DNA of 64,000 nt from an uncultured Myxococcaceae bacterium (GTDB taxonomy: Bacteria; Myxococcota; UBA727; JABDBI01). Positions 2,236 through 55,557 of this stretch are shown here, piece after piece. The notes below the pieces were generated by a model that was not told the origin of the DNA, did no database searches, and saw nothing but the letters and a program-made list of their open reading frames with translations. Each line of letters begins with the position of its first letter. Within the stretch, counting starts at the first letter, position 1. A program made the position numbers and the translations under genes. The DNA is taken from contig CAZWPE010000001.1 of NCBI GenBank assembly GCA_964635635.1, forward strand, positions 107,774 to 171,773, written 5' to 3'.

Positions 2236-3429
2236 ATGGCTCAGGAGCTTTCTTGGAAGGATTCGTTTGTTCGCGACTATTATTTAAAGAACCGTCTATC
2301 TTTGGCGTTTTATTCGAACTGCACCTTTGCTTTTGCAGATGAGGCGGGCTGCCCGGACGCTTGCTCGCGGGCGGCAAAGCTGATCGCTGCCGTTCGCCGT
2401 CAAAGACCGCCGGTGATTACGAGCCGAATTCCCAAACTGGGACGTGATGATTTGCGACAGTCCAAGGGAGATTGGATCGTGGTGGCTTGTTTGGGGCAGT
2501 TCTATCTTTTAAAGCAGGGCGCCACTGAAAATACATTGCGTGCTTTGGTTCATGATGCGCGTTGTTCTGCTCCAGAGCCTGAAGTTGGCTGGTTAACCCT
2601 GCTCCCCAGAGATGCTTTCGCTGAAGTTTACCCGCTGCTCGGCAAGAATGTAGAGCTTATTCAAAATGCAGTTATTCTTGTGGCTCTTGATTTAGATGCG
2701 GCTCCCAAAAATGATAACGAGTTTGCTCATGCTTTAGCCAATGGGGGTTTGGGTAACCGATGGTTTGATTTGTCGCTGCAATTGATTGTCACTGGCAACG
2801 GTAGAGCAGGGGGGAATACGGAACACACTGTTTATGATTCTTTGCCAGCTGGTACTTATGTGAATTCACTGATGAGTGATGTTCCTGCCGCTAGCGAAGA
2901 CCAAGGGTATGAAAAAATTCGTTGGCCCAATGACCTTAAAATTAGCCAGGCCATTGCTGAGGCGAAAAATTTTGCAGAGGCAGAAGTTTCTAAGCGCGAA
3001 ATACATTGCGTTCGAACCAGGGCGTTTGAACGAGATGTTGATGTTCAAATGGCGATCCAGTTGGCAGCAAAAGAAATATTCGGAGCACCACAGGTCACCA
3101 GTGAAGCTCTTAGTATGGCGCATATGCCAGAGGGACGTTATGCAACCATATTTTTTGAGTCACCTGAAGATTTGCAAAATCACCGGCAAAGAATCAAATC
3201 AGCCAAACTAGGCGAACCAATTCAAGTATTACCATGTGAAATCGTCACTTCAAACGCAGGGCACCATGAACACATTCCACTCATAGGCTTCACAGATACT
3301 GACCCAAATATTGTTGGAATCTCATATATTATGAAGCCAACCGAGACAGTATTTCACATTAAAGCAGATGGAGTTCACAAAGAAAAAGCCCGGAAGTATG
3401 CTTACTTTTTGAACCAGCTGTTGAGGTAG
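2236..3429 (+). CDS. Choline/carnitine O-acyltransferase family protein (short form lacking about 150 N-terminal residues relative to eukaryotic CrAT)
   Basis: NRWFDLSLQLIVTGNGRAGGNTEHTVYDS matches the catalytic-His block NRW[FY]DKSxQ..EH of carnitine acyltransferases. Downstream blocks (DVQMAIQLA, TSEALSMAHMPEGR, IVGISY) align with the CrAT C-terminal half. Confidence 0.7.
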   Translation: MAQELSWKDSFVRDYYLKNRLSLAFYSNCTFAFADEAGCPDACSRAAKLIAAVRRQRPPVITSRIPKLGRDDLRQSKGDWIVVACLGQFYLLKQGATENTLRALVHDARCSAPEPEVGWLTLLPRDAFAEVYPLLGKNVELIQNAVILVALDLDAAPKNDNEFAHALANGGLGNRWFDLSLQLIVTGNGRAGGNTEHTVYDSLPAGTYVNSLMSDVPAASEDQGYEKIRWPNDLKISQAIAEAKNFAEAEVSKREIHCVRTRAFERDVDVQMAIQLAAKEIFGAPQVTSEALSMAHMPEGRYATIFFESPEDLQNHRQRIKSAKLGEPIQVLPCEIVTSNAGHHEHIPLIGFTDTDPNIVGISYIMKPTETVFHIKADGVHKEKARKYAYFLNQLLR

Positions 3430-4808
3430 TTATACAGTTGTTTGGAACTGTCAAACAACCATGCAGCACCTGGCATTTCTTCTCTCTCTAGAGAAATCTC
3501 TCTTTCAATGTCTTCAAGTTTACTTTGAATTGTTGGATCATTTGGGTGGAATTTCATTAGTAGATTGCGTGCCATGTCGACAGTCTTCCGTGATTCAGCA
3601 TCTAAATCTAAAAAACTCAAAAGAGTTTCTTTGACTTTTTCATCTCTAAAGAAATTAGCGGCTTCATTGCGCACATACTCAGACCTATCCTCTAGGCATT
3701 GAGCAATGGCTTGATGAATCTTGGGATCTTGAGGCTTGATGGCGGCTAAAGCCTGGATGGCGGCTTCTCTTGCTCTCGGATATTCATTGCTCAGGCATTG
3801 AGCAATGGCCTGATGAATGCCGGGAGCTTGAGGTTTGATAAAGGCTAAAGCCCGAACGGCGGCTTGCCTTGCCTCACGATTTTCACGCTGCAGCAATTGA
3901 ACAAGGAATTGATGAATCTCTTGATCTTGAAGTTTGATAGAGGTTAAAGCGTCAACGGCGGCTTGCCTTACAAACCAATTTTCATCCTCCAGGCATTGAG
4001 CAATGGCTTGACGAATCTTGGGAACTTGAGGCTTGATGGCGGCTAAAGCCTGGAGGGCGGCTTGCCTTACCTCCGCATATGGATTCTCCAGGTGTTGAGC
4101 GATGGCTTGATGAATCTTGGGATCTTGAGGGTTGATGGCTTTTAAAGCCTGAACGGCAGCTTGCCTTACACTCCAATCTTTATCCCTCAGGGATTCAACG
4201 ATGACTTGATGAATCTTGGGATCTTGAGGCTTAATCGCTTCGAAGGCACTGATGGTAGCTATGCGTATGTGTGGATTGAGATCATTCAAATACCGAGCCA
4301 TGACTTCAAGGATATCTGAATCGATTGGTTTAACCTTAGCTAATGTTTCTAGAACGTCAACTATGTCTCCTCCTGAAGAACGTTCCGATTGCAATACTTC
4401 TTTAACGAGAGTTATGACAGCAGTTTCGTTACCCTTTTCAGCTGCAGAGCACAATTCAGCAACAGCGTTATTTGGATTTTTGTTGAATAAGCGCTGCCAA
4501 GTGGCTTCTGAGTAGTGCTGAATCCCCTCTTGGAATCCTTTGGAGGTTTTAGCTTGAGTCAAGAGACTTTTTGAAGAGTCACCTGAAAATGCAGCGATAC
4601 GTGCAGTAAAAGCAGGATTTTTAAACAATTCGTTTTTAGGAGCCGCGATGGCTTCTTTCTTGGTTTCAGGTACACGCAAAGGGCTCAAAGCTGCTTCATC
4701 TCTGCTCTGTCGATATTGGTCAGGTAGTTGCTTATACTCATCGCCCTTGCGGTTTTGTTGCTGTTGGTTTTCTTGAACAGAAATTTTTCCAGTAATACCT
4801 ATCTTCAT
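3402..4808 (-). CDS. HEAT/PBS-lyase-like repeat protein
   Basis: About 6-7 tandem 33-aa units (PQDPKIHQAIAQCLE..VRQAAVQALAAIK) typical of HEAT-like repeats. Confidence 0.8.
   Translation of the reverse strand: MKIGITGKISVQENQQQQNRKGDEYKQLPDQYRQSRDEAALSPLRVPETKKEAIAAPKNELFKNPAFTARIAAFSGDSSKSLLTQAKTSKGFQEGIQHYSEATWQRLFNKNPNNAVAELCSAAEKGNETAVITLVKEVLQSERSSGGDIVDVLETLAKVKPIDSDILEVMARYLNDLNPHIRIATISAFEAIKPQDPKIHQVIVESLRDKDWSVRQAAVQALKAINPQDPKIHQAIAQHLENPYAEVRQAALQALAAIKPQVPKIRQAIAQCLEDENWFVRQAAVDALTSIKLQDQEIHQFLVQLLQRENREARQAAVRALAFIKPQAPGIHQAIAQCLSNEYPRAREAAIQALAAIKPQDPKIHQAIAQCLEDRSEYVRNEAANFFRDEKVKETLLSFLDLDAESRKTVDMARNLLMKFHPNDPTIQSKLEDIEREISLEREEMPGAAWLFDSSKQLYNYLNSWFKK
3690..4290 (-). repeat. 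Tandem 99-bp DNA repeats (about 6 copies) encoding the HEAT-like units
   Basis: Recurring caggcattgagcaatggcttgatgaatcttgggatcttgaggcttgatggcggctaaagcc.. with a period of about 99 bp. Confidence 0.75.
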
Positions 4809-4995: not shown

Positions 4996-6192
4996 TTATG
5001 AGCTGCGCTGTAGAGTGCTTCCAATGATTACAACAGGGCTTCCTTGTAGGAATTCAGTAAAATCCAGAAGCTTTGGCTCTGCCAGGTGTTTGAACTCAAA
5101 AATACACGTTTCTTCTGTTCCGAACCAATTTTCCTGATTTACCAACATAAGTTTGTAGTGGTTTTTTAGATTGCGAACTTCAACACGAAAGTGTTTTTCT
5201 TGGTGGACGATTTGAGTACCTAACACTGTTTTTAGCTTGTGTAGATTGTAGGCCAAACTCTTGGCGAAAATTTTAACTTGATTTGGGCGTTTGGCTTTAT
5301 TGAGTACAGGCGCAAAAGACATGTAGGGGTATGCGCTCGAATCAAAGCACTGAGAAAGACCTTTATAGTGAAGTCCTGATTCAGTTTCGAGTGGGGGTAA
5401 AAATCGCTTGATAATCTGCTTTTGGCGGTCTGTGAATTTTTCAAAGAGGTTTAAAACTTTCATATCATTGATGTGGTCACTCTTCAAATTTTTACACCCT
5501 TCGAAGATTTTTTTCGCAGTCATGCCATGTTTGTCTTTAAGGCAGACTAGAGCGGGTGTGATGAATGGATGCGTGAGAAATGCTTCTACCTTCTCTGAAC
5601 TGCGAATAAGAGAGGCAAGATGAAGTGCACTTTGTCCTTCATGATTGATAGCGTCAAAAATAGAAGCTGTCATGTTTGGATGATGAAGTATTTTGATGAT
5701 TTGATTTGCCGAGGCATGCAGCATGTTACGGTGTAAGATAGTTTGCCCAAATGAATCTCGCTTGAGCCAGACGTCTTTTGAAAATCCAAGTTCGTCAAGT
5801 GTTTCAATGTCAGAGCGATCTGCAACGATGTCCATTGCGGTTTGATTATTGCTGTCTTGGATACCAACCACATCTCCTGTGGCAAAAGGATGCTCAATGA
5901 GTGTTTTAAATATGGTGAGAGTAGGCAAAGCTGCTGCATAGTGAAGAACCGTTCGGTTATTGGTGTCTTTTTGGGCAAATGTTTTGGAATCAAAATGCAT
6001 CGAATCTAAAATCCGCTCCACAGGTTCAAGACGTCCTTTTGAGACAGCGATATGCAGGGGAGTTTGAAATGCGTCGTTCAACTGCGTGATTTCGTTCTTG
6101 TCAAAAGTTTCTTCATGCAGTGGTTCTGGCTCGACAATACGCCAGAAGTTAGTGGTTCGGTATCCGCAGCTTGGGAGTGGCGCTTGAAGCAT
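4996..6192 (-). CDS. Ankyrin-repeat protein with a C-terminal domain of unknown function
   Basis: Repeated ankyrin signatures TPLHIAV, TVLHYAA, TILHRNM and SALHLAS. Confidence 0.8.
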   Translation of the reverse strand: MLQAPLPSCGYRTTNFWRIVEPEPLHEETFDKNEITQLNDAFQTPLHIAVSKGRLEPVERILDSMHFDSKTFAQKDTNNRTVLHYAAALPTLTIFKTLIEHPFATGDVVGIQDSNNQTAMDIVADRSDIETLDELGFSKDVWLKRDSFGQTILHRNMLHASANQIIKILHHPNMTASIFDAINHEGQSALHLASLIRSSEKVEAFLTHPFITPALVCLKDKHGMTAKKIFEGCKNLKSDHINDMKVLNLFEKFTDRQKQIIKRFLPPLETESGLHYKGLSQCFDSSAYPYMSFAPVLNKAKRPNQVKIFAKSLAYNLHKLKTVLGTQIVHQEKHFRVEVRNLKNHYKLMLVNQENWFGTEETCIFEFKHLAEPKLLDFTEFLQGSPVVIIGSTLQRSS

Positions 6193-10332: not shown

Positions 10333-10397
10333 ATTTGAAAAACAAATAAGATTTATTTATTATATAAAAAGTTTCAGTGTCTGGTGAGGGGGATCCA

Positions 10398-12899
10398 ATG
10401 AGTCAAAGATTAGGTTTCAGTCCGGCTGAATTCAGAGAACAAGGTGACTACGAGCAAGAGGGTGAGAAACGTGTTTCGGGAAAGGATGCGGGTGTTGATG
10501 TTTATGAGGCGCCCTCTTTGCTGGAACAAGTTTCTAGAGGCTTAACTCCTCAAATTATAGAGAGTTATTTGAAAGAACCGGATGGAGAAGAAAAAACTAA
10601 GCTTCTACAAGCAATGGGCCAAAAAATAAAACCTGAGACATTGTCTAAACTGCCGCCAGAATCAGTGTCGAAACTTCATGAAATTTTTCAGAATAAGGGC
10701 AAACTCGAGGTAAGATGGGCGATCGAGGATGCGCAGTGGGAAAATGAAAAAATGTCGAGGTTTGTGATAGCCCCATACCGACGTAAACTCGATTTTGCAG
10801 ATTTAGAAGAGTATCTAAAAAAAGGAGCGAGTATTAACTTTCGACTGCCCGAAAATAATGCAAACGCAAACGACAACAGTGGCAATTTTCCGGGGATGAA
10901 CCTGATTCAGATGGCATTATCTCTAAATGATATGGATACTGTGAGTAAGCTATTTGCGAGAGGTGCTCAATTTACAGAAGAAGATGCTAATTATATGTAT
11001 CCCCAAGAATATTGGTTGGGCAATGTAAGTTTGGCCCATAGACTCTTGGAGTCTGGTTACACAGATGCTTTTATTTGGCTGATTGATCATGGGGCTAACC
11101 CTAATCAAATCATTTCAAAATATGGGGACCCTTTTGATGCATTGAGCCTAGCGCAAGCAGCTTTAAAAAAAGGCGATGTGATGGCATTTGAAAAACTCAT
11201 TGAAAAAGGTGCTGATATCAACCTGCCATTTCCCCGTACGAGTACAACAGGGGAATATGCGAATAAAACTCTTGCTCAGGTTGTCCTAGAGAGGGGGGAT
11301 ACAAACGCCCTTAGGCTTCTCCTGGAAAAAGGTGTTTCTCCTAACCAAACTTTTCCTTCTGCTTGGAATTCTGAGGCTACCTACAAAGGCATGACTCTTT
11401 TGCAGGTGGCTATGATACTAGGGCATACAGATATCGCTATGCTACTGCTCGATCATGGAGCCGATCCAGATCGAGTCTTCCCAGGGACCATTGATGAACA
11501 CCGTGATTATGCTGGCAGGACACCGATTCAGATTGCTCTGAGGCAGAACAATACGGGGCTGATTGAGAAACTCATCGAGCGTGGTGCATCAAGCAAGGGT
11601 TTAACGAGTCCGTTGACTTTTAAAGCGTTGCGTTTACCACGAGAAGATTTGGAATCGATTAAGCCATTAGAAAATGGCGATAGTATTGAACAAATTATCG
11701 AAAAATCAAAAGATAAAAAATGGATTCAAGAATTCTTTGGAGACCCAAAACCTGCCAACGAAGGAGACCAAAAACCTGTCATTGAATATGTGGACGACCA
11801 TCATTCGAAAAACGGACATACTCGCGAAGACATCATTAACGGTCTTCAGGTTTTTTTCGAAAGAATTCAGAAAAGAGAGGCTGTTCTGGGGACGCCTCCG
11901 TCAAATCAACTTAAAGAGTTAAATGCGTATTATGACAACATGTTCCATCGCTTGCAGCATATTTTTTCGTTCTTAGAACAGAAAGAGATTGCTCAAGATA
12001 TCAAACGGGCTGCTCTCGATATGATTTATGGGGGTTCTTTGGCTTGCGGTACGGCTTGGTTCAATGAGGTTAAGAGTGCCTATGAACTTCTTAAATCGCA
12101 GATTAAAGCACCCCAACAAAGTTCTGCCACAGCAGCAAGCGCTGCAGATGAAAGTTTTCAAAGTGAGTATGAGTCGATCATTGAGCAGCGCTTGTATGAA
12201 TTTAGAAGGCGTTGTTTTGAATCTGCTCTGCCCAACAACAATACGCACACCTATAACGCCTACATGCGCGAGCTGGGGGTTGAGTTTGGGGTGGCGGGAA
12301 AAAATTCAAGCTATGACGATCCAACCGTTGTTCCTATTTCAGAGTACGAAAAAGCTGTTTTCAGACACAAGGTCGAGTCTCTTTATGAGCCAAAACTTAT
12401 CATTGATTTTATATATAAAATTTCCAAAGATAAAACACAAATAGGTGAGGGGATTATCCCTGGTCTGCTTGCTGACTATGGACCTAAAGTAAGCCAAACT
12501 CAAGCTAATAGGTATTTTGTGTTGGAAAATAAGAAGGAAAAAGATGAGCTCAGTGGCGAAGAGTTGAGGGAATATGAGGAACTTACAAAAATTATCTCTC
12601 AGGAAGATGATTATACGGAGATGACGCTTGGAAAAGAATACGAGCCAACCCGAGAAGGCGTGGAATATTTGCTTAAAGCTTTAGGCATATTACGAATTAG
12701 AGACCTGAAAGGGATAAAGCTCGATCCATGGAGCCAATTCTTAATAAGACGTAAACAAAAGGAGCTCGAGTCAGCAGAGGAAGGCTCCGAAAGGCAAAGA
12801 GACCTAAAAGAATGGCTTTCAGAAGCTCAGGCTGAGCAAATTCAAGAAGTTAAGCAAACAAAGAAGGCTTCATCAGCCACAGCTGCCGCTAGTTCTTAA
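10398..12899 (+). CDS. Large ankyrin-repeat protein with an acidic, coiled-coil-rich C-terminus (effector-like); ORF opens at GTG 10377, ATG 10398 preferred
   Basis: At least five ankyrin units (GMNLIQMALSLND.., DALSLAQAALKKGD.., KTLAQVVLERGDTNALRLLLEKGVSPN, MTLLQVAMILGHTDIAMLLLDHGADPD, RTPIQIALRQNNTGLIEKLIERGA). GAGGGGGA lies upstream of the ATG. Confidence 0.75.
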   Translation: MSQRLGFSPAEFREQGDYEQEGEKRVSGKDAGVDVYEAPSLLEQVSRGLTPQIIESYLKEPDGEEKTKLLQAMGQKIKPETLSKLPPESVSKLHEIFQNKGKLEVRWAIEDAQWENEKMSRFVIAPYRRKLDFADLEEYLKKGASINFRLPENNANANDNSGNFPGMNLIQMALSLNDMDTVSKLFARGAQFTEEDANYMYPQEYWLGNVSLAHRLLESGYTDAFIWLIDHGANPNQIISKYGDPFDALSLAQAALKKGDVMAFEKLIEKGADINLPFPRTSTTGEYANKTLAQVVLERGDTNALRLLLEKGVSPNQTFPSAWNSEATYKGMTLLQVAMILGHTDIAMLLLDHGADPDRVFPGTIDEHRDYAGRTPIQIALRQNNTGLIEKLIERGASSKGLTSPLTFKALRLPREDLESIKPLENGDSIEQIIEKSKDKKWIQEFFGDPKPANEGDQKPVIEYVDDHHSKNGHTREDIINGLQVFFERIQKREAVLGTPPSNQLKELNAYYDNMFHRLQHIFSFLEQKEIAQDIKRAALDMIYGGSLACGTAWFNEVKSAYELLKSQIKAPQQSSATAASAADESFQSEYESIIEQRLYEFRRRCFESALPNNNTHTYNAYMRELGVEFGVAGKNSSYDDPTVVPISEYEKAVFRHKVESLYEPKLIIDFIYKISKDKTQIGEGIIPGLLADYGPKVSQTQANRYFVLENKKEKDELSGEELREYEELTKIISQEDDYTEMTLGKEYEPTREGVEYLLKALGILRIRDLKGIKLDPWSQFLIRRKQKELESAEEGSERQRDLKEWLSEAQAEQIQEVKQTKKASSATAAASS

Positions 12900-18834: not shown

Positions 18835-20547
18835 TCACTTCAGATCAAAGAAGTCAACGTAGTAGCCAGGTGCTTCTCCAGTATTCTTTCCAGGATTCGA
18901 ATAGCAAGTAAAGGTCGAGGTTTTATCGTCAAAAGGAAATGTGTAGGCTGTAGGACACGCCTGCTTCATGAATACCAACCAGGGTTGGATATTCGTTGCC
19001 CAAGTAGAATTAGTAGCACTGCAATTGCCTTGAGACGCAAGTACATTGGGCCAGGTGCTTAGATATGGATTGCCAGGAAATGTTGGGCAACCGCAATCGC
19101 ACGAAGTGCCGGATTGATAACACGAGTTAGGCGCAGTGCCTGTGCAGCCAAACATGTCTGAATAAGTGTAGGATGTTCCTGAGATGCTGCCGCACTGAAG
19201 TGGGGATATGTTTGATGTTCCAGGGTTTGTGCCGCATATCTGGTCAGCGCTCCAATAGGCAATAAACGTGCCACACACCTTGGCAACGGTTGAAATGCCA
19301 GTGTTTTGCGCAAGACCGCAGAGTTGTCCGCTAGCGCAATCTGAGTCTTTGCTGCATGAGCAGTATTGATTACCTGCTCCAGTAGGTGAGCCGGAAATAC
19401 AGCTTTTGTTGATGGTAGGTAAAACTTGTCGCAGCAACGTGCTTTGATTTTTGGGGGTGATGCCTGGAATCGAAGGTGTAACACTCCAGCTACAGGCACG
19501 CAGTACACCTAAAGAGTCAGCTTGTGTGAGAGCGCCCGGCGTTGCGCAGAAATAAGGGTCAGTTTGACTCTTGGTTGTTGTGGTTGAGTCAGGTTCCATG
19601 GCAATGCCAATGTTCATGCCATTGATAATACTGACGTCATAATAATCGAGGTTTGGTTGAGGGGCTGTGAATGTGAATTCTGCCAAGCTTGCAGGAGGAA
19701 CTCCACCGGTTCCAGCGTTGCAGCTTCCATCTTGTGGAGCACAGGAGCCATTGTTTGGACAGTCTTCTGCATAAGTGTGACCAGATAGAGGGGTATATCC
19801 TGGGCCGCAGTTAGTTTGAGTGCAAGCTTGACCTGAAATCTGACATTTGAAACCACCTCCATTGTTAATGCATTGATCTCCGATGGTTGTACAAGTAGAA
19901 CATCCAGCGCTATTCGTGGAGCATTCACCTGAGGCACAGTTTTGGCCATTGGAGTCGCAACCAAAGCGTGCAAACAAATTTCCACTCCATTGAACCGAGC
20001 TTAGAGCGTTTGTTTGTCTACCGTGTTTTGAAGAGGCTCCTAAGGGAGCAGGAAAACAAAGTTTCAGTGATTGAGTTGGTGAGAGTTTAGGGGTGTTGGC
20101 GCCAACCATTCTGGGTTGCTTCCAGAAACACTGAAATCCATTGCCCGCTACTGTATTGGTTGCGCATACGCCCAGTGTTCCACAACTCTGTGATGCTGCG
20201 CTGCAGCCGCAGACACCCGTTGGCCCGACCGCATCAGAGCCGGTAATTATACAGTTGTTGCCCATGTTGGCACAGTCCGTATTTTTTCGGCAGAAAAATG
20301 AACCGCTGGTCAGACCTACCCATACAGTTTGCGATGAATTGTTGGTGACAATCATGGGCCTTTCGCCAGTAGAACAAAAATCAAGCACGGGCCGATTGTC
20401 TGGTGGATTGGGATTATTTGGATTATTGGGACCACTTGGGTTATTCGGCCCACTGGGATTGCTAGGCACATTTGGATCATTGCTCTTCGAGCAACCAAGC
20501 CCAACAAGAATCAAAACAACCCAAAACAAACGCATAAAAACCCCCAT
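18835..20547 (-). CDS. Large cysteine-rich lipoprotein with a thaumatin-like C-terminal domain
   Basis: Lipobox LVGLGC. Pro/Asn-rich linker. Thaumatin family signature blocks YDVSIINGMNIGIAMEP and CPTAYTFPFDDKTSTFTC (compare CPDAYSYPQDDxTSTFTC). Confidence 0.65.
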   Translation of the reverse strand: MGVFMRLFWVVLILVGLGCSKSNDPNVPSNPSGPNNPSGPNNPNNPNPPDNRPVLDFCSTGERPMIVTNNSSQTVWVGLTSGSFFCRKNTDCANMGNNCIITGSDAVGPTGVCGCSAASQSCGTLGVCATNTVAGNGFQCFWKQPRMVGANTPKLSPTQSLKLCFPAPLGASSKHGRQTNALSSVQWSGNLFARFGCDSNGQNCASGECSTNSAGCSTCTTIGDQCINNGGGFKCQISGQACTQTNCGPGYTPLSGHTYAEDCPNNGSCAPQDGSCNAGTGGVPPASLAEFTFTAPQPNLDYYDVSIINGMNIGIAMEPDSTTTTKSQTDPYFCATPGALTQADSLGVLRACSWSVTPSIPGITPKNQSTLLRQVLPTINKSCISGSPTGAGNQYCSCSKDSDCASGQLCGLAQNTGISTVAKVCGTFIAYWSADQICGTNPGTSNISPLQCGSISGTSYTYSDMFGCTGTAPNSCYQSGTSCDCGCPTFPGNPYLSTWPNVLASQGNCSATNSTWATNIQPWLVFMKQACPTAYTFPFDDKTSTFTCYSNPGKNTGEAPGYYVDFFDLK

Positions 20548-45657: not shown

Positions 45658-45747
45658 TGGCGGAGAGAGAGGGATTCGAACCCTCGATACGGTTTCCCGT
45701 ATACGCCCTTAGCAGGGGCGCGCCTTCAGCCTCTCGGCCATCTCTCC
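45658..45747 (-). tRNA. tRNA-Ser (anticodon GCU) with long variable arm and encoded CCA
   Basis: The reverse complement GGAGAGATGGCCGAGAGGCTGAAGGCGCGCCCCTGCTAAGGGCGTATACGGGAAACCGTATCGAGGGTTCGAATCCCTCTCTCTCCGCCA folds as a class II tRNA with anticodon loop CTGCTAA. Confidence 0.9.
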
Positions 45748-47603: not shown

Positions 47604-48752
47604 TCAGTTCCCACAAGCCTTAAACCCATCTATGAAACCAATACGATTATTTTTTCGATCGAAATGGATGTATTGGTTTTCCATCACGGCTTGACCTAGA
47701 ATAACGAAATCGCTGCCTGTAGGTGCAAAACCGAATACGCAGAGGTTTTCTTGTGTGCTCTTCATGTAAGATTCTGGGCGAATGGTTAGTTGGAGACCAC
47801 CTTCAAAGGTGAGGATGATATTTGGAAGATTGGCGAGTCTCACACTGCTGCAAACGAGTTCTTTCTCGCCTGCCCAAAATTTTTCGTCTGTGGGTAGATT
47901 GCTATTTGCCGCTTGAATTTGTTTCACCATGGCTGAGTGCATAGCAGATGGGATCGCGCTTACAGTTGTTCCACTGTCTAGGATGGTGCAAGTTCTAGAA
48001 CTTTCAGCTTGAGCACATGGGGTTCCACCATTTGGGTACGGATATTCTGGGAAATCTCCAAGTTTGTTATCCGAATTCACGCTACCGAGATAAGCGGACG
48101 TCGCATTTAAAACATACCAACTTTTCTCTTTAACTGGAGTATAATTGGCGTTTGTAAAGCTACCTAGGGATGAGTTGGTGCCGCCAAAAATAATTTGGCT
48201 GTTACCATCGTGTGCAACGCCACATAAGAGTGTGCTGAATTCATTACTCATGCCAGTTGTGGTAGTTAGATCTGCAAAGAAAGTATGATCCTGATTACCT
48301 TGAGCGACACCCTCATAGGCAAGACCCATGATTTGAGGAGTACATGCACTGCCTGTGCATGACTGGATGCTTCCAATGTAGTAGTTTGGAATCCCTGCAC
48401 CGCAACTGAAATCAACAAAGCCGATGTAATTTTGAACGCTGATTGTTGTTTGACCGCCATAAAATATTGGAAAGGGTGAACCTGTGAGTTCTAGATTGTT
48501 GGTGTTAAATCCGCTGCTTGTATTATCAATGACTAAATTAGAGCTTCCTGTGTCTGCTACTAATTCCATTGTCTGGCCATTGACCACTAGTGAAATGTGA
48601 TATTCGAGCGTAGAGCCGACATTTTGTCTCAGTGCGCTTCTGTTTGTTACAAATACATGCTTGAGGCCGTAGGTTGGGTTACTGCAGGGTGGGTTTGACT
48701 TGCTGCAGGCTATAAACAAGATAATCGAAAAGAGTAAACTAGAAAGTTTCAT
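47604..48752 (-). CDS. Pepsin-like (family A1) aspartic protease lipoprotein
   Basis: Lipobox LFIACS. Two catalytic motifs VADTGSSNLVI (pepsin DTGSSNLWV) and ILDSGTTVSAIP (pepsin DTGTS). Confidence 0.75.
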   Translation of the reverse strand: MKLSSLLFSIILFIACSKSNPPCSNPTYGLKHVFVTNRSALRQNVGSTLEYHISLVVNGQTMELVADTGSSNLVIDNTSSGFNTNNLELTGSPFPIFYGGQTTISVQNYIGFVDFSCGAGIPNYYIGSIQSCTGSACTPQIMGLAYEGVAQGNQDHTFFADLTTTTGMSNEFSTLLCGVAHDGNSQIIFGGTNSSLGSFTNANYTPVKEKSWYVLNATSAYLGSVNSDNKLGDFPEYPYPNGGTPCAQAESSRTCTILDSGTTVSAIPSAMHSAMVKQIQAANSNLPTDEKFWAGEKELVCSSVRLANLPNIILTFEGGLQLTIRPESYMKSTQENLCVFGFAPTGSDFVILGQAVMENQYIHFDRKNNRIGFIDGFKACGN

Positions 48753-48780
48753 AGCCGAGATGCTATGAAATCTTGGCCAG

Positions 48781-49389
48781 TTAAAGCAATAAACTTTCTA
48801 GTATTAGTTGTGCGTTAACGTGTCTGCCTAGATCCTGAACTGCTTTGAACAACTTTTCTTTGAATTCAAGTGAAGCGTTCTGATTCCAAGCCTGAAAAAT
48901 CGGTTCTAAATCTGTTTTTGATTTGACCAAGCTTTCAATCAATTCCAAACGCTCAAGCCGGCTTTCTGGAATTTCGGGAGCTTTTTCTGCGTCTAATTGG
49001 CGAGATACAGAAGGGACATTAATCCGCTGACATCTTGAAACCAGCGTTGGCAAAATTGAGCGGGTACTAGGTGCAATCAAAATAAAGAATTGATTGCCGC
49101 GTGGTTCTTCAAGTGTCTTAAGCAAGGCATTGCTTGCTTGCTTATTGAGCAGCTCAGCCTGCGGGATAATCCAAGACAAGCTCGGTGATCCTGAGATTAA
49201 ATCTCGAATCTGATCAACTTTGAGTTCAGAGCCGTTCTCAGATTCTAGTTTTACAAATCGGACATTCATCTTGGAAAGAAGTTCCACTGCAAGACGTTCT
49301 TTCTCTGTTTGGTCGTCACCTACAAAAAGTAGTGCATGCGAAAGACGATTTTTTTTCATCGCAATTTCGAATTGGTGACATAGTTGCAT
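48781..49389 (-). CDS. holB: DNA polymerase III delta-prime subunit-like (no P-loop)
   Basis: LEEPRGNQFFILIAPSTRSILPTLVSRCQ matches the delta' sensor/arginine-finger region. The ORF extends to 49449. Confidence 0.65.
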   Translation of the reverse strand: MQLCHQFEIAMKKNRLSHALLFVGDDQTEKERLAVELLSKMNVRFVKLESENGSELKVDQIRDLISGSPSLSWIIPQAELLNKQASNALLKTLEEPRGNQFFILIAPSTRSILPTLVSRCQRINVPSVSRQLDAEKAPEIPESRLERLELIESLVKSKTDLEPIFQAWNQNASLEFKEKLFKAVQDLGRHVNAQLILESLLL

Positions 49390-49617
49390 AAATAGAAGTC
49401 CTCCCAAATAGGAAGAAACGCAATTACGCAATCTTTGTCCCATTTGCAAACCGGCTCAAGTCCCTGAAAATATTTTGATTTTAAAATATTAAAGAAATAT
49501 TTTGTTTTGTAAAGAAAATAATCTAGAACGCTCGACCCATCGTATGGGTTTAAGACAAGATAATAATAGATAAAAGGTTTTCGTTTGTGGAAACCCAGGT
49601 CTAAGGAGGATTTTACA

Positions 49618-50199
49618 ATGGCTGAAAAAGTCGTACGTGCAGGGATTGAGCGTAAAAAAGGGTGGCTTTACTATTTAGATAAGAACTTAAATGTATATAG
49701 AGTTAAAATGGTTCGCGGTGGCGAAAAGAAAGCAAAGGGTGAACGCCCAGAGCTGGTTCTTAAGACCGATATGAGAAGAGACCAGAACTATTTGTATTAC
49801 GTAGATAAGGCAGGGGACATTTCCCGTGTCAAGGCAAGCCGAGGAGGCACTGCCCGTAAAGGTAAAAAACGCCGCAGAACCGCTGCGCAAAGGAAAGCAA
49901 TGTTAGAGAAGAAGAAAGCTCTGAAGAAGAAGAAAGCTGAAGCTAAGAAGAAAAAAGCCGCTGCTAAGAAGAAGAAATCAGCAGCTTTGAAAGCTAAGAA
50001 GAAAGCTGCAGCAGCTAAGAAGAAAGTAGCTAAGAAGTCTAAGAAAGTTAAGGCTAAAAAAGCTGTTAAAAAGCCAAAAGCTAAGAAAGTAGTCAAAAAA
50101 GCTAAGGCTAAAAAAGCTGTCAAAAAGCCAGCTAAGAAAAAAGCCGCTCCTAAAAAGAGCCATGGCAAAAAGAAAGTAGCTAAGAAGAAAGCTGCTTAA
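49618..50199 (+). CDS. Histone H1-like Lys/Ala-rich protein with a duplicated N-terminal module
   Basis: taaggagga RBS 7 nt upstream. Two 35-aa repeats (GWLYYLDKNLNVYRVK.. / NYLYYVDKAGDISRVK..) followed by an about 100-aa AKKKK-type tail encoded by low-complexity tandem DNA. Confidence 0.7.
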   Translation: MAEKVVRAGIERKKGWLYYLDKNLNVYRVKMVRGGEKKAKGERPELVLKTDMRRDQNYLYYVDKAGDISRVKASRGGTARKGKKRRRTAAQRKAMLEKKKALKKKKAEAKKKKAAAKKKKSAALKAKKKAAAAKKKVAKKSKKVKAKKAVKKPKAKKVVKKAKAKKAVKKPAKKKAAPKKSHGKKKVAKKKAA

Positions 50200-53256: not shown

Positions 53257-53448
53257 ATATCTATCACCACCACTTGATGCTCATGAGACTGTTCAGTCTC
53301 CCCAGTGTCGTCTGGTGACGGGTATTCTAAGTCTGACTCGTCTGGCGTTGGAAGCCTAACGCTTTCATCGTGTTTTTTTTCTCGTTCGCGTTTGCGTTCG
53401 TTTTCATCTTCAATCACCCAAGGGGGTGGAAGTCGGTTGGCCAATCTC

Positions 53449-54486
53449 ATGAGTTTAGAATATCAGGCTTTTCAGTTTGCGAAATCAAAACATGCCTCTG
53501 ATCTTGTGTCAGATATTCGTGAGTTGTGGGAGGCTTTGACTGTTGAGCGCTCAGAAGGCCTGGCTCAGTACTTTCGCAAGCCAGGTTTAAGACGCGCTTA
53601 TCTTGGTTACTATGTTCCAATGTATGCGATGAAAATCGCGGCTCTTTTGCGTGATTTGAATTTGCCGCTTAAAAAACCGAATGTACTGGATTTAGGCGCA
53701 GGACCTTTATCGGCTGTCTGGGGCGCCCAGATTGCATATGGCGAATTAGGCCAAGTTCTCGCGGTAGACCAAGATTTAGGACCTATGAAGGCAGGTCTTG
53801 AGTTGCTTGATGCAATTTCACCTGTGAAAAATATTCATTTGGCGCGTGCAAATCTCAAGGGTCCGCCGAATTTTTGGAAACCAAGGTTCAAGCCAGATTT
53901 AATTTTGATGGCTCATGTTCTAAATGAGTTTGGTTCTGGTGAGCGATATTTAGAAGATAAAAAGATGCTCTTGGTTCATGCGGTGAATCAATTGGCGCCG
54001 GACGGTATTATTGTGGTTATAGAGCCAGCCTCAAAGGTTCCGACCCGTGATTTAATGCTGCTCAGAGACTGGTTATATGAAAGTGGCCAAGTGGAAATTT
54101 TAGCGCCTTGCCCGCTCAATGTTGCACGCTGTCCTTTGTTGGTAGACAGAAACAACTGGTGTCATGCTGATCTGCCGTATCAGCGTCCTGAGGAATTGCG
54201 AGAAATCGATTCGAAAATTGGTTTTGAGCGAGAAGTTTTAAAATGCAGCTATCTAGTGATTGCTCGCCGTGGATTTAAGTACGAAAAAACGAATTGCCGA
54301 ATCGTGAGCGGTCATATGAACGCACGTGGAGTAGATAGACGCTATGCATGCATGCCAGAGGGTTTGATGACTCTTTCCCAAAATGTTCATGAAAAACCAG
54401 TCATATTGGCATCACTCAGGCGCGGCGAGTCGGTAAGCCCAGAATCCTGGCCCAAAAAGCTTGTAAATATTTCCAAAGAATCTTAA
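53449..54486 (+). CDS. Rsm22-family SAM-dependent methyltransferase
   Basis: VLDLGAGP SAM motif and C-terminal Cys cluster APCPLNVARCPLLVDRNNWCH. The upstream Ser-rich extension (53305-53448) is judged non-coding. Confidence 0.7.
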   Translation: MSLEYQAFQFAKSKHASDLVSDIRELWEALTVERSEGLAQYFRKPGLRRAYLGYYVPMYAMKIAALLRDLNLPLKKPNVLDLGAGPLSAVWGAQIAYGELGQVLAVDQDLGPMKAGLELLDAISPVKNIHLARANLKGPPNFWKPRFKPDLILMAHVLNEFGSGERYLEDKKMLLVHAVNQLAPDGIIVVIEPASKVPTRDLMLLRDWLYESGQVEILAPCPLNVARCPLLVDRNNWCHADLPYQRPEELREIDSKIGFEREVLKCSYLVIARRGFKYEKTNCRIVSGHMNARGVDRRYACMPEGLMTLSQNVHEKPVILASLRRGESVSPESWPKKLVNISKES

Positions 54487-54498
54487 GTTTTTTGCCAG

Positions 54499-55557
54499 AT
54501 GGCAGAGCAGGGCGAAGAGAAAACAGAAGAGGCGACTCCGCAGAAGTTGCGCAAGGCGCGTGAGAAAGGCCAAATCGCCAAGAGTCAAGATTTGGCATCA
54601 GCGTTTGTTTTCTTTTCTGCGTTGGGTGCTCTGGTTGTTTCACTGAGCTGGATGGTTCAGAAGATAAATGACCTTTTTATGCTCAGTGTCCAGTCAATGC
54701 ATGCAGAGCATATGGGCAAGGCAGTTTTAACTGTTGTCCGAGAAGGTGGCTGGACTTGGTTGCTCGTATCGATCCCAATCGTACTAGGTGCTTTTATTGG
54801 TGCGCTGGTGGGAAACTATTTGCAGGTTGGCTTTATGTTTACGCTGGAGCCACTGAAACCTCAGTTTAACAAAATTAACCCGATCAACGGTATTAAGCAG
54901 ATGTTTAGTGTCAAGCGTTTGGTCGAGCTTTTGAAGCAGATGGCCAAGTTTATCATGGTTTCTGCTGTGGTTTATTTAGTGCTCAAAGACGCAGTGTTTA
55001 ACTTAGTAAACATGCAAAGTCTGCAGCTGACCGAAGCGTTGCCAATTATTTATGCGATTATTAAGGATATTTTTCTTAAAGTTGCTGTGTTGTTTTTGAT
55101 TATTGCTGTGCTTGACTGGTTTTGGCAGCGGCATAGTTTTTTAAAAAGCATGCGGATGACCAAGTACGAAATCAAACAGGAATACAAAGAGTCAGAAGGG
55201 GACCCTCAGCTAAAATCAGAGCGAAAGCATTTGGCTCAAGAGCTCATTATGCATGGCAGCCAGCAAGCAGTGAAGAAAGCAGATGCCGTGGTAACCAATC
55301 CAGATCACTATGCCGTGGCGATTAAATATGACACGAAAGAACACGCAGCTCCAATTGTTGTCGCGAAGGGAATGAACAAGAATGCGGAGGCAATTAAAAA
55401 AATTGCAAATCAATATCGCGTTCCGATTATTAGAAATGTTAGTTTAGCCCAGGCACTTCATAAGCTTGACTTAGACGAAGAAATCCCAGAAGAGCTTTAT
55501 GATGCTGTCGCGGAAGTTTTGAACTTTGTTTACGAGTTGAGGAAGAAAAATGGCTGA
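54499..55557 (+). CDS. Type III secretion export-apparatus switch protein, SctU/YscU/FlhB family (autocleavage motif variant NPDH)
   Basis: Four TM helices plus cytoplasmic domain with VVTNPDHYAVAIKYD (canonical NPTH) and C-terminal PIIRNVSLAQALH. Confidence 0.85.
   Translation: MAEQGEEKTEEATPQKLRKAREKGQIAKSQDLASAFVFFSALGALVVSLSWMVQKINDLFMLSVQSMHAEHMGKAVLTVVREGGWTWLLVSIPIVLGAFIGALVGNYLQVGFMFTLEPLKPQFNKINPINGIKQMFSVKRLVELLKQMAKFIMVSAVVYLVLKDAVFNLVNMQSLQLTEALPIIYAIIKDIFLKVAVLFLIIAVLDWFWQRHSFLKSMRMTKYEIKQEYKESEGDPQLKSERKHLAQELIMHGSQQAVKKADAVVTNPDHYAVAIKYDTKEHAAPIVVAKGMNKNAEAIKKIANQYRVPIIRNVSLAQALHKLDLDEEIPEELYDAVAEVLNFVYELRKKNG

Follow-up and report, generated by a model that had tools for sequence, protein, structure and literature searches.

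The window analysed here is a 64,000-nt stretch of contig CAZWPE010000001.1 from an uncultured Myxococcaceae bacterium. At positions 47604–48752 on the minus strand it carries a complete gene of 382 codons plus stop for a pepsin-like (MEROPS A1) lipoprotein precursor, an assignment based on the open reading frame (ORF), the Pfam family PF00026, an AlphaFold2 model and Foldseek. Sequence and model together make it likely that the product is an exported, lipid-anchored, two-lobed A1 aspartic endopeptidase, belonging to a large uncharacterised clade of lipoproteins that stands nearer to BACE1/2 than to the cytoplasmic bacterial homologues. The gene holB, encoding the delta' subunit of DNA polymerase III (48781–49449, minus strand; PF13177), lies on the same strand 28 nt upstream of the protease start, and an acyl-CoA dehydrogenase gene converges on the protease gene. 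The translation carries LVADTGSSNLVID with the catalytic D67 and TILDSGTTVSAIPS with the catalytic D259. All sub-features of the gene given below lie on the minus strand, and their coordinates were re-verified by translation.

The protease matched PF00026 with 93.1 bits (cutoff 19.9, E=2.8e-26) over residues 53–373, corresponding to profile positions 6–312 of 315. The retropepsin models PF13650, PF13975 and TIGR02281 from Pfam and NCBIfam covered only 22–39 residues around the first DTG and were sub-threshold. NCBIfam contained no model for the protease, its sole match being sub-threshold and of retropepsin type. A retropepsin-like identity was rejected on the basis of these short, sub-threshold matches. 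The AlphaFold2 model, built from a 25-sequence family alignment, had a mean predicted local distance difference test score of 86.3 and a predicted template-modelling score of 0.85. When this model was compared with the PDB using Foldseek, 569 matches were found at E<=1e-3, and the best 50 were all BACE-1, with template-modelling scores of 0.70–0.71 and about 375 aligned columns, indicating that both lobes were matched. By profile match and model, the protease is a two-lobe, single-chain pepsin-family peptidase. A sequence-only reading of this DNA had described a bacterial pepsin-like A1 lipoprotein with both catalytic motifs and had proposed a PF00026 search; the ORF, the full-length PF00026 match, the bilobal model and the lipobox-type signal described below agree with it. 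The findings that this reading had named as refuting it, retropepsin-like best matches or a missing flap or second lobe, were not seen: A1 was the best-matching family, and flap hairpin and second lobe are both present in the model.

Catalytic landmarks were assigned by aligning the protease to the profile of a 48-member family and to porcine pepsin (identical to PDB 3PEP), BACE2 (from the alignment of a PDB hit) and shewasin D (sequence as given in the supplement to PMC4814920). The N-lobe catalytic motif VADTGSSN (48537–48560) placed D67 and S70 at pepsin D32 and S35, respectively, and the C-lobe motif ILDSGTTV (47961–47984) placed D259 and T262, the latter near the dyad, at pepsin D215 and T218, respectively. 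The flap beta-hairpin spans residues 88–114 (48411–48491; model strands 88–97 and 103–114) with Tyr98-Gly99 at its tip, corresponding to pepsin Tyr75-Gly76, and Y98 also aligned with Y63 of BACE2. The first psi-loop has the hydrophobic-hydrophobic-Gly form, IMG143 (48324–48332) being equivalent to pepsin ILG122. The second, ILG353, corresponds to pepsin G302 and is followed by Gln354 at the position of pepsin Asp303 (47691–47702). In the family alignment, D67, G69, D259, G261, G143 and G353 were invariant in 48 of 48 relatives, the flap Tyr was kept in 47, and Gln occupied the Asp303 position in 44. Overall, the catalytic Asp residues, the adjacent Gly and Ser/Thr, the flap Tyr and the psi-loop Gly residues were 98–100% conserved across these diverged relatives, which points to selection on catalysis. 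The protease probably has A1 endopeptidase activity.

The N-terminus of the protein, MKLSSLLFSIILFIAC, consists of a basic n-region, a 12-residue hydrophobic core and then the lipobox LFIA↓C16. The signal peptide, residues 1–15 (MKLSSLLFSIILFIA, 48708–48752), includes a helix at residues 2–14 in the model, and homologues align from M1. The lipobox LFIAC (residues 12–16, 48705–48719) was called with a regular expression of the PROSITE PS51257-type pattern, and Cys16 is the predicted lipidated mature N-terminus. The lipobox column contained Cys in 44 of the 48 family members, and several of the remainder look N-terminally incomplete. Neither lgt nor lspA was found in the gene annotation of the window, the rest of the genome being outside this scope.

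Downstream of the lipobox, a tether with the first strand comprises residues 17–50 and includes Cys23 (48603–48704; from the BACE1 alignment and the model). Residues 32–50 aligned with the N-terminus of mature BACE1. The model showed strands at residues 27–29 and 31–35, and residues 39–46 were disordered. There are 34 residues between Cys16 and the first core strand, too few for a zymogen prosegment, with six residues between Cys16 and Cys23 and about ten from the lipidated Cys16 to the folded domain. The alignment with the mature BACE1 N-terminus and this short spacing leave no room for a prosegment of the pepsinogen type, so the protein is probably made in active form. Because of the short tether and the predicted bond of Cys23 to the N-lobe, the catalytic domain should sit near the membrane surface.

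The protease has 11 cysteines, namely the lipobox Cys16 and ten that fall into five pairs. Four of the pairs were followed through the 48-member alignment. C177 and C380 were both present in 48 members (neither in 0, a single one in 0), and C23 and C117 were both present in 42 (neither in 4, a single one in 2). The corresponding counts for C301/C338 were 6, 40 and 2, and those for C246/C255 were 2, 46 and 0. C132/C137 is a short local pair with proximity as its only basis and no co-variation in the 48-member set. Cys380, near the C-terminus (47613–47615), is the predicted disulfide partner of Cys177 in the LLCG motif. Cys246 and Cys255 belong to a clade-specific insert, residues 234–255 (47988–48053), which was present only in the window protein and in P0002, a relative with 39% identity.

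Several of these positions are also occupied by cysteines in BACE. C177 aligned with Cys216 of BACE1 (full-length numbering) and C147 of BACE2, where pepsin has Ser156. BACE1 Cys216 reportedly pairs with Cys420, directly after the C-terminal RIGF strand, as Haniu et al. are said to have found in 2000. C380 presumably stands at the place corresponding to Cys420. The protease has Cys at the equivalents of BACE positions 216, 330 and 380, and presumably one near 420. C301 and C338 aligned with BACE1 Cys330 and Cys380, a known disulfide (PMC9600878), and C338 also aligned with pepsin C282. The BACE pair Cys278-Cys443 is absent from the protease, and the additional C23-C117 pair of the protease would tie the tether to the N-lobe. 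From co-variation and the BACE and pepsin alignments we infer the disulfides C23-C117, C132-C137, C177-C380, C246-C255 and C301-C338. The paired cysteines fit an oxidising, extracytoplasmic location.

A further cysteine feature was seen among distant family members, many of which have a C-x-x-C loop (for example CPNC, CTNC or CSNC) at the pepsin C45-C50 site, at columns ~137–146 of family alignment A2, after DTGSSNL. In the window clade this loop is deleted; C301/C338 are found instead, together with C246/C255 in the window protein and P0002.

The affinity to BACE was evident at several levels. The family profile scored the window protein at 325 bits, BACE2 at 214, pepsin at 170 and shewasin D at 86, the last in two pieces. 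Against BACE1/2 the profile reached E ~1e-58 and single-sequence phmmer E ~1e-16, and the best 60 PDB sequence matches of the profile were all BACE1/2. Using BLASTP, the protease was 25% identical to BACE2 over 359 amino acids (aa) (E=2e-20) and 25% identical to pepsin over 338 aa (E=3e-13), while the match to shewasin D was confined to ~37 aa surrounding the first active-site motif (E=0.006). Like the protease, BACE1/2 have the motifs DTGS and DSGTT as well as the flap Tyr, and in both groups Trp is missing from pepsin position 39. They also share the Cys of L-x-L-C-G and, apparently, the Cys just after the C-terminal R-I-G-F strand, neither of which is present in pepsin. BACE and the protease are both membrane-tethered, but the anchor of the protease is a predicted N-terminal lipid on Cys16, whereas that of BACE is a C-terminal transmembrane helix. 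The protease ends nine residues after the last core strand (…RIGFIDGFKACGN) and has no C-terminal transmembrane anchor of the BACE type. It also lacks the furin-cleaved propeptide of BACE.

Pepsin A, chymosin and cathepsins D and E have the same fold and catalytic apparatus, and the pepsin landmarks map one to one onto the protease. Pepsin, however, is a soluble, secreted enzyme with a zymogen prosegment of ~45 residues, whereas the protease has no prosegment and is predicted to be lipid-anchored. The pepsin Asp303 is replaced by Gln, and the pepsin loops C45-C50 and C206-C210 are missing in the window clade. Rickettsia APRc and the retropepsin-like enzymes of Pseudomonas resemble the protease in being bacterial aspartic proteases of clan AA that are exported or membrane-associated (PMC4140852, PMC12239564), but retropepsin-like enzymes have a single lobe and must dimerise, unlike the two-lobe single chain described here.

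Shewasin A and shewasin D are the only characterised bacterial A1 enzymes (PMC4814920, PMC2761423). Like the other bacterial pepsin homologues of Rawlings and Bateman (2009), they are bilobal and without prosegment, as is the protease, and the shewasins have also been reported as closest to BACE (PMC2761423, PMC4814920). Both were shown to be active and pepstatin-sensitive, which indicates that bacterial A1 proteins can be real enzymes. A signal peptide is missing from the shewasins, and the cytoplasm is where shewasin D accumulates (PMC2761423, PMC4814920), whereas the lipoprotein signal of the protease is conserved across its family. Shewasin D contains three Cys and has Ala (A290) at pepsin position 218, in contrast to the five predicted disulfides and T262 of the protease. 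The weak similarity to shewasin D indicates that the protease is not a shewasin-type homologue, and by sequence the two belong to different clades.

Relatives of the protease were collected in several searches. Word-index homology searches returned two relatives with the single protein and 14 with the 25-sequence alignment A2, and a scan of GTDB representative genomes with patterns from the two-sequence alignment A1 returned none. As these patterns fit the window sequence itself, the genome of the window is not one of those representatives. When 1.84 billion cluster representatives were searched exhaustively with HMMER, 912 matched at E<=1e-3, of which 155 reached E<=1e-10 and 29 reached E<=1e-30. 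These included ~50–60 clusters (50% identity) of similar bacterial proteins of 350–430 aa, typically with seven cysteines. A lipobox or near-lipobox was present in ~36 of the 60 best representatives, and several of the others look N-terminally incomplete. Below the top ~60 ranks, longer proteins with ordinary signal peptides prevailed, BACE-like sequences included. A rough, midpoint-rooted neighbour-joining tree without support values separated a short, mostly lipobox-bearing group from a eukaryote-type group containing BACE2, and the bacterial clade was not nested inside the BACE clade. The lipobox-bearing group is, on these search results, a sizeable uncharacterised clade of uncultivated bacteria. 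The sequence-only reading had stated that bacterial A1 homologues are reported in only a handful of species. This holds for the literature, in which Rawlings and Bateman (2009) listed pepsin homologues from seven bacterial genomes (PMC2761423) and the two shewasins have been characterised. It does not hold for the sequence data, given the number of lipobox-bearing clusters. We found no paper in the literature that describes an exported or lipoprotein bacterial A1 peptidase. One review assigns Amuc_1434 of Akkermansia to 'family A1' (PMC13271334), an assignment on which nothing here relies.

Genomic relatives and their loci were retrieved with the 8-sequence close-clade alignment A3. The matches came from metagenome-assembled genomes (MAGs) labelled Deltaproteobacteria, Myxococcales and Myxococcaceae, and from one labelled Rhodothermales. 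Organism names were available for 2 of 20 relatives, and the NCBI name of some members is "MAG: pepsin-like aspartyl protease [Myxococcota bacterium]". This generic name is appropriate; the window gene is a genuine A1 peptidase and not a contaminant. Locus L006 (JABDBI010000007.1, 'MAG: Methanobacteriota archaeon') carries the lipobox-bearing A1 homologue P0019. It was rejected as an archaeal pepsin homologue, since the contig encodes YbeY, PhoH, SdhA/SdhB and further lipobox proteins; it looks bacterial and was evidently mis-binned or mislabelled.

Synteny was assessed by tblastn of the proteins neighbouring the protease in the window against the fetched loci. The order PilO-PilN-PilD, K-rich protein, holB, protease and convergent acyl-CoA dehydrogenase was kept in L001, L002, L004 and L005. 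L001 and L002 appear to stem from one population, and the four loci therefore stand for three other genomes. P0002 is likewise encoded on a metagenomic contig with the same neighbours as the window protease. Identities to the window copies were 85–93% for the K-rich protein, 74–76% for EF-P, 71–74% for the acyl-CoA dehydrogenase, 53–62% for PilD, 52–55% for holB and 36–39% for the protease. The conserved slot and these identities indicate that the lineage has long had the gene, and that the genes around it evolve more slowly. holB and the protease gene are likely co-transcribed, in the orthologous loci as well.

The composition of the gene was ordinary. Its GC content was 0.433 against a window mean of 0.456 +/- 0.028, its GC at third codon positions (GC3) was 0.397 against 0.420 +/- 0.043, and its codon-usage distance was 0.363 against 0.302 +/- 0.064, all within one standard deviation (SD). 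A compositional island at the protease was rejected for this reason. The window, part of an 854-kb NCBI contig, represents core chromosome, with genes for PutA, GroEL, the Suf operon, DnaG, RpoD, NadE, EF-P, FlhB, ClpXP, DprA and AcrB. The nearest named relatives of its ClpX, with 66–75% identity, were from MAGs labelled Myxococcota, Deltaproteobacteria and Myxococcaceae, and no cultured organism was found among the best 120 ClpX relatives. A gene for tRNA-Ser(GCT) (45658–45747, minus strand) is located between nadE and the gene for acyl-CoA dehydrogenase, ~1.9 kb away from the protease, and neither an integration site nor a mobile element was seen beside it. On this evidence the protease gene is vertically inherited, and a recent acquisition is not supported; an ancient transfer between domains, in either direction, may have taken place.

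No paralogue of the protease was found elsewhere in the window. In the MAG nzgw262, a second A1 lipoprotein copy was found: one gene lies after holB (L004, 7932–9068; P0005) and the other in L003 (7989–9092; P0006). The L003 paralogue lies 6 nt upstream of astB (succinylarginine dihydrolase), adjoins a thioredoxin-reductase-like gene and is two genes away from a DsbA-like thioredoxin.

The 28-nt spacer after holB contains a perfect 9-bp hairpin, TTTCATAGC-N6-GCTATGAAA (48747–48770, minus strand), with the protease start codon in its 3' arm. Its minimum free energy was -16.5 kcal/mol, compared with -7.7 +/- 3.6 at other ORF starts. Hairpins of differing sequence were also found just 5' of the ATG in L001 (~6060–6085), L002 (~3356–3381) and L005 (~5230–5255), those of L001 and L002 showing compensatory differences. 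L004 has a 16-nt spacer with weak structure. An intrinsic terminator was rejected because terminator-like matches were at chance level and the orthologues lacked T-runs. The hairpin could occlude translation initiation or serve as a 3'-end element of holB. Shine-Dalgarno-like motifs were scarce in the window (12 of 45 ORF starts with a lenient pattern, counting all 45 window ORFs of at least 180 aa), so a missing Shine-Dalgarno sequence before the protease is normal for this genome.

On the proposed mechanism, Sec would export the protease precursor, and processing by Lgt, LspA and Lnt would follow, with Cys16 being diacylglyceryl-modified and signal peptidase II removing residues 1–15. By the sorting rule of E. 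coli, Ser at position +2 directs a lipoprotein to the outer membrane. Ser17 occupies this position in the protease, which would then be placed in the outer membrane if that rule applies. The five predicted disulfides would form in the oxidising periplasm in a Dsb-dependent manner. D67 and D259 would activate a water molecule, acting as general base, while the Tyr98 flap would close over an extended substrate and the two psi-loops would hold the catalytic dyad in place. At the cell envelope, proteins or peptides would be its most likely substrates. Lipidation, membrane location, disulfide connectivity, activity, pH range and substrates are in this scheme what we infer, its steps following what is established for lipoprotein biogenesis and A1 catalysis.

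Some points weigh against this scheme. Most A1 enzymes need acidic pH, whereas in bacteria of groundwater or lakes an enzyme of the periplasm or cell surface would meet near-neutral pH. At -3 of the lipobox, Phe replaces the canonical Leu, although the PS51257-type pattern permits Phe. The predicted disulfide connectivity is drawn from co-variation and from alignment to BACE and pepsin. The gene context, after holB and convergent with an acyl-CoA dehydrogenase gene, gives no functional clue, and the L003 paralogue sits among unrelated metabolic genes. Concerning pH, BACE2 has Ala at the pepsin Asp303 position. Renin also has Ala there, and changing it to Asp lowered the pH optimum (PMC2761423). 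As Gln at this position removes a charge near the dyad, and given the renin precedent, a pH optimum of the protease above that of pepsin is plausible.

As to what the enzyme would cleave, we lean, weakly, toward broad degradative or nutritional proteolysis over BACE-like shedding, because of the fast evolution and the paralogy of the gene. Specific processing, with the protease as a sheddase or maturase of the BACE kind whose substrates would be one or a few proteins of the envelope or related to pili, is possible but on balance unlikely. It would fit the shortness of the tether and what appears to be an operon with holB. Cys23 is 7 residues away from the lipid-bearing Cys16, so the active site would be held close to the membrane, as in BACE, and the probable co-transcription with housekeeping holB at all orthologous loci suggests constitutive, low-level expression. 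Genes for type IV pili are also nearby. However, the protease evolves much faster than its neighbours (36–39% against 52–93% identity) and is duplicated in one MAG, as would be more typical for an enzyme exposed to changing substrates from outside. No gene for a candidate substrate was consistently adjacent, and the proximity of the pilus genes may be coincidence.

An improbable alternative is that the protein is a catalytically dead pepsin-fold binding protein or inhibitor, similar to the TAXI-type xylanase inhibitors or the pregnancy-associated glycoproteins. The A1 family is known to include inactive members (PMC2761423), and the C-lobe of the protease also matched the Pfam model TAXi_C (E=1.3e-11). 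This model, however, simply describes a C-terminal lobe of the A1B type and scored 45 bits against 93 for PF00026, and the near-complete conservation of the catalytic residues in the 48 relatives argues against loss of activity.

The sequence-only reading had suggested that the gene could be horizontally acquired and its product surface-anchored, with a conjectural part in host or prey interaction. A recent acquisition from a eukaryote, such as capture of a BACE-like or other A1 gene, would agree with the overwhelmingly eukaryotic distribution of A1 peptidases (PMC2761423), with animal BACE1/2 as the best solved relatives, and with the further eukaryote-typical domains encoded in the window (ankyrin, HEAT, thaumatin and carnitine acyltransferase-like). 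As a recent event, however, it is highly improbable. In the three other genomes, too, the gene stands between holB and that for the acyl-CoA dehydrogenase, with flanking genes of 52–93% identity. GC and codon usage, whose comparison with neighbouring genes the same reading had proposed, were within one SD of the other window genes, as was GC3. Furthermore, its nearest relatives are dozens of bacterial lipoproteins, apart from the eukaryote-type sequences in the rough tree, and its product carries a lipobox of bacterial type but no prosegment of the eukaryotic kind. That the protein is instead a cytoplasmic shewasin-type homologue with a signal peptide created by a wrong start codon would match the characterised bacterial A1 enzymes, all without signal peptide and with shewasin D in the cytoplasm (PMC4814920), but is scarcely credible, since homologues align from Met1 across the hydrophobic core to the conserved lipobox Cys, ten paired Cys stand against three in shewasin D, the profile and BLASTP matches to shewasin D are weak and fragmentary, and position 218 has Thr and not Ala.

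Other genes of the window were also inspected. Divergent to holB, at 49585–50199 on the plus strand, a gene encodes a 204-aa protein without a Pfam match. It is the most conserved gene of the neighbourhood, its N-terminal domain of ~100 aa being 85–93% identical in L001, L002, L004 and L005, and its Lys/Ala-rich tail resembles histone H1. Domains mainly of eukaryotic type are encoded at 2236–3429 (plus strand), 3402–4808 (minus), 4996–6192 (minus), 10377–12899 (plus) and 18835–20547 (minus). They comprise a carnitine/choline acyltransferase-like domain (PF00755, E=8e-43), HEAT repeats, two ankyrin-repeat proteins and a thaumatin domain (PF00314, E=2e-13) in a 570-aa protein. The A1 protease is thus one among several eukaryote-like genes of this genome. 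A gene for an Rsm22-like methyltransferase, of a family named after a mitochondrial ribosomal protein, adjoins flhB (53305–54486 and 54499–55557, both plus strand). The presence of flhB (flagellar export) together with pilD, pilN and pilO suggests that the organism is both flagellated and piliated. Flagella plus pili are unusual for MAGs labelled 'Myxococcales'.

The protease adds a member to an enzyme family already known, and its clade is unlike the bacterial pepsin homologues published so far in predicted location, cysteine content and sequence relationship. The gene reveals a group in uncultivated bacteria that is different from, and much larger than, the shewasin-type homologues, and whose members are predicted to be exported, lipid-anchored, disulfide-bonded, free of a prosegment and nearer to human beta-secretase than the shewasins are. 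The disulfide position of the Cys216 type held in common with BACE, together with the higher score against BACE than against pepsin or shewasin D, raises the rather doubtful idea that the lipobox clade is an old, widespread bacterial A1 lineage, as opposed to a collection of recent eukaryotic captures, and the bacterial sister, or even the source, of the memapsin-type or the whole eukaryotic A1 family. If so, the two-lobe duplication would be placed in bacteria, and the clade would offer a tractable bacterial model of a membrane-tethered BACE-like enzyme, maybe one working at near-neutral pH. If its members are active, they would constitute a new class of envelope proteases in lineages labelled Myxococcota and would provide simple models for zymogen-free A1 enzymes, possibly acting near neutral pH. 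The clade also bears on whether the bilobal pepsin fold had a bacterial or a eukaryotic origin.

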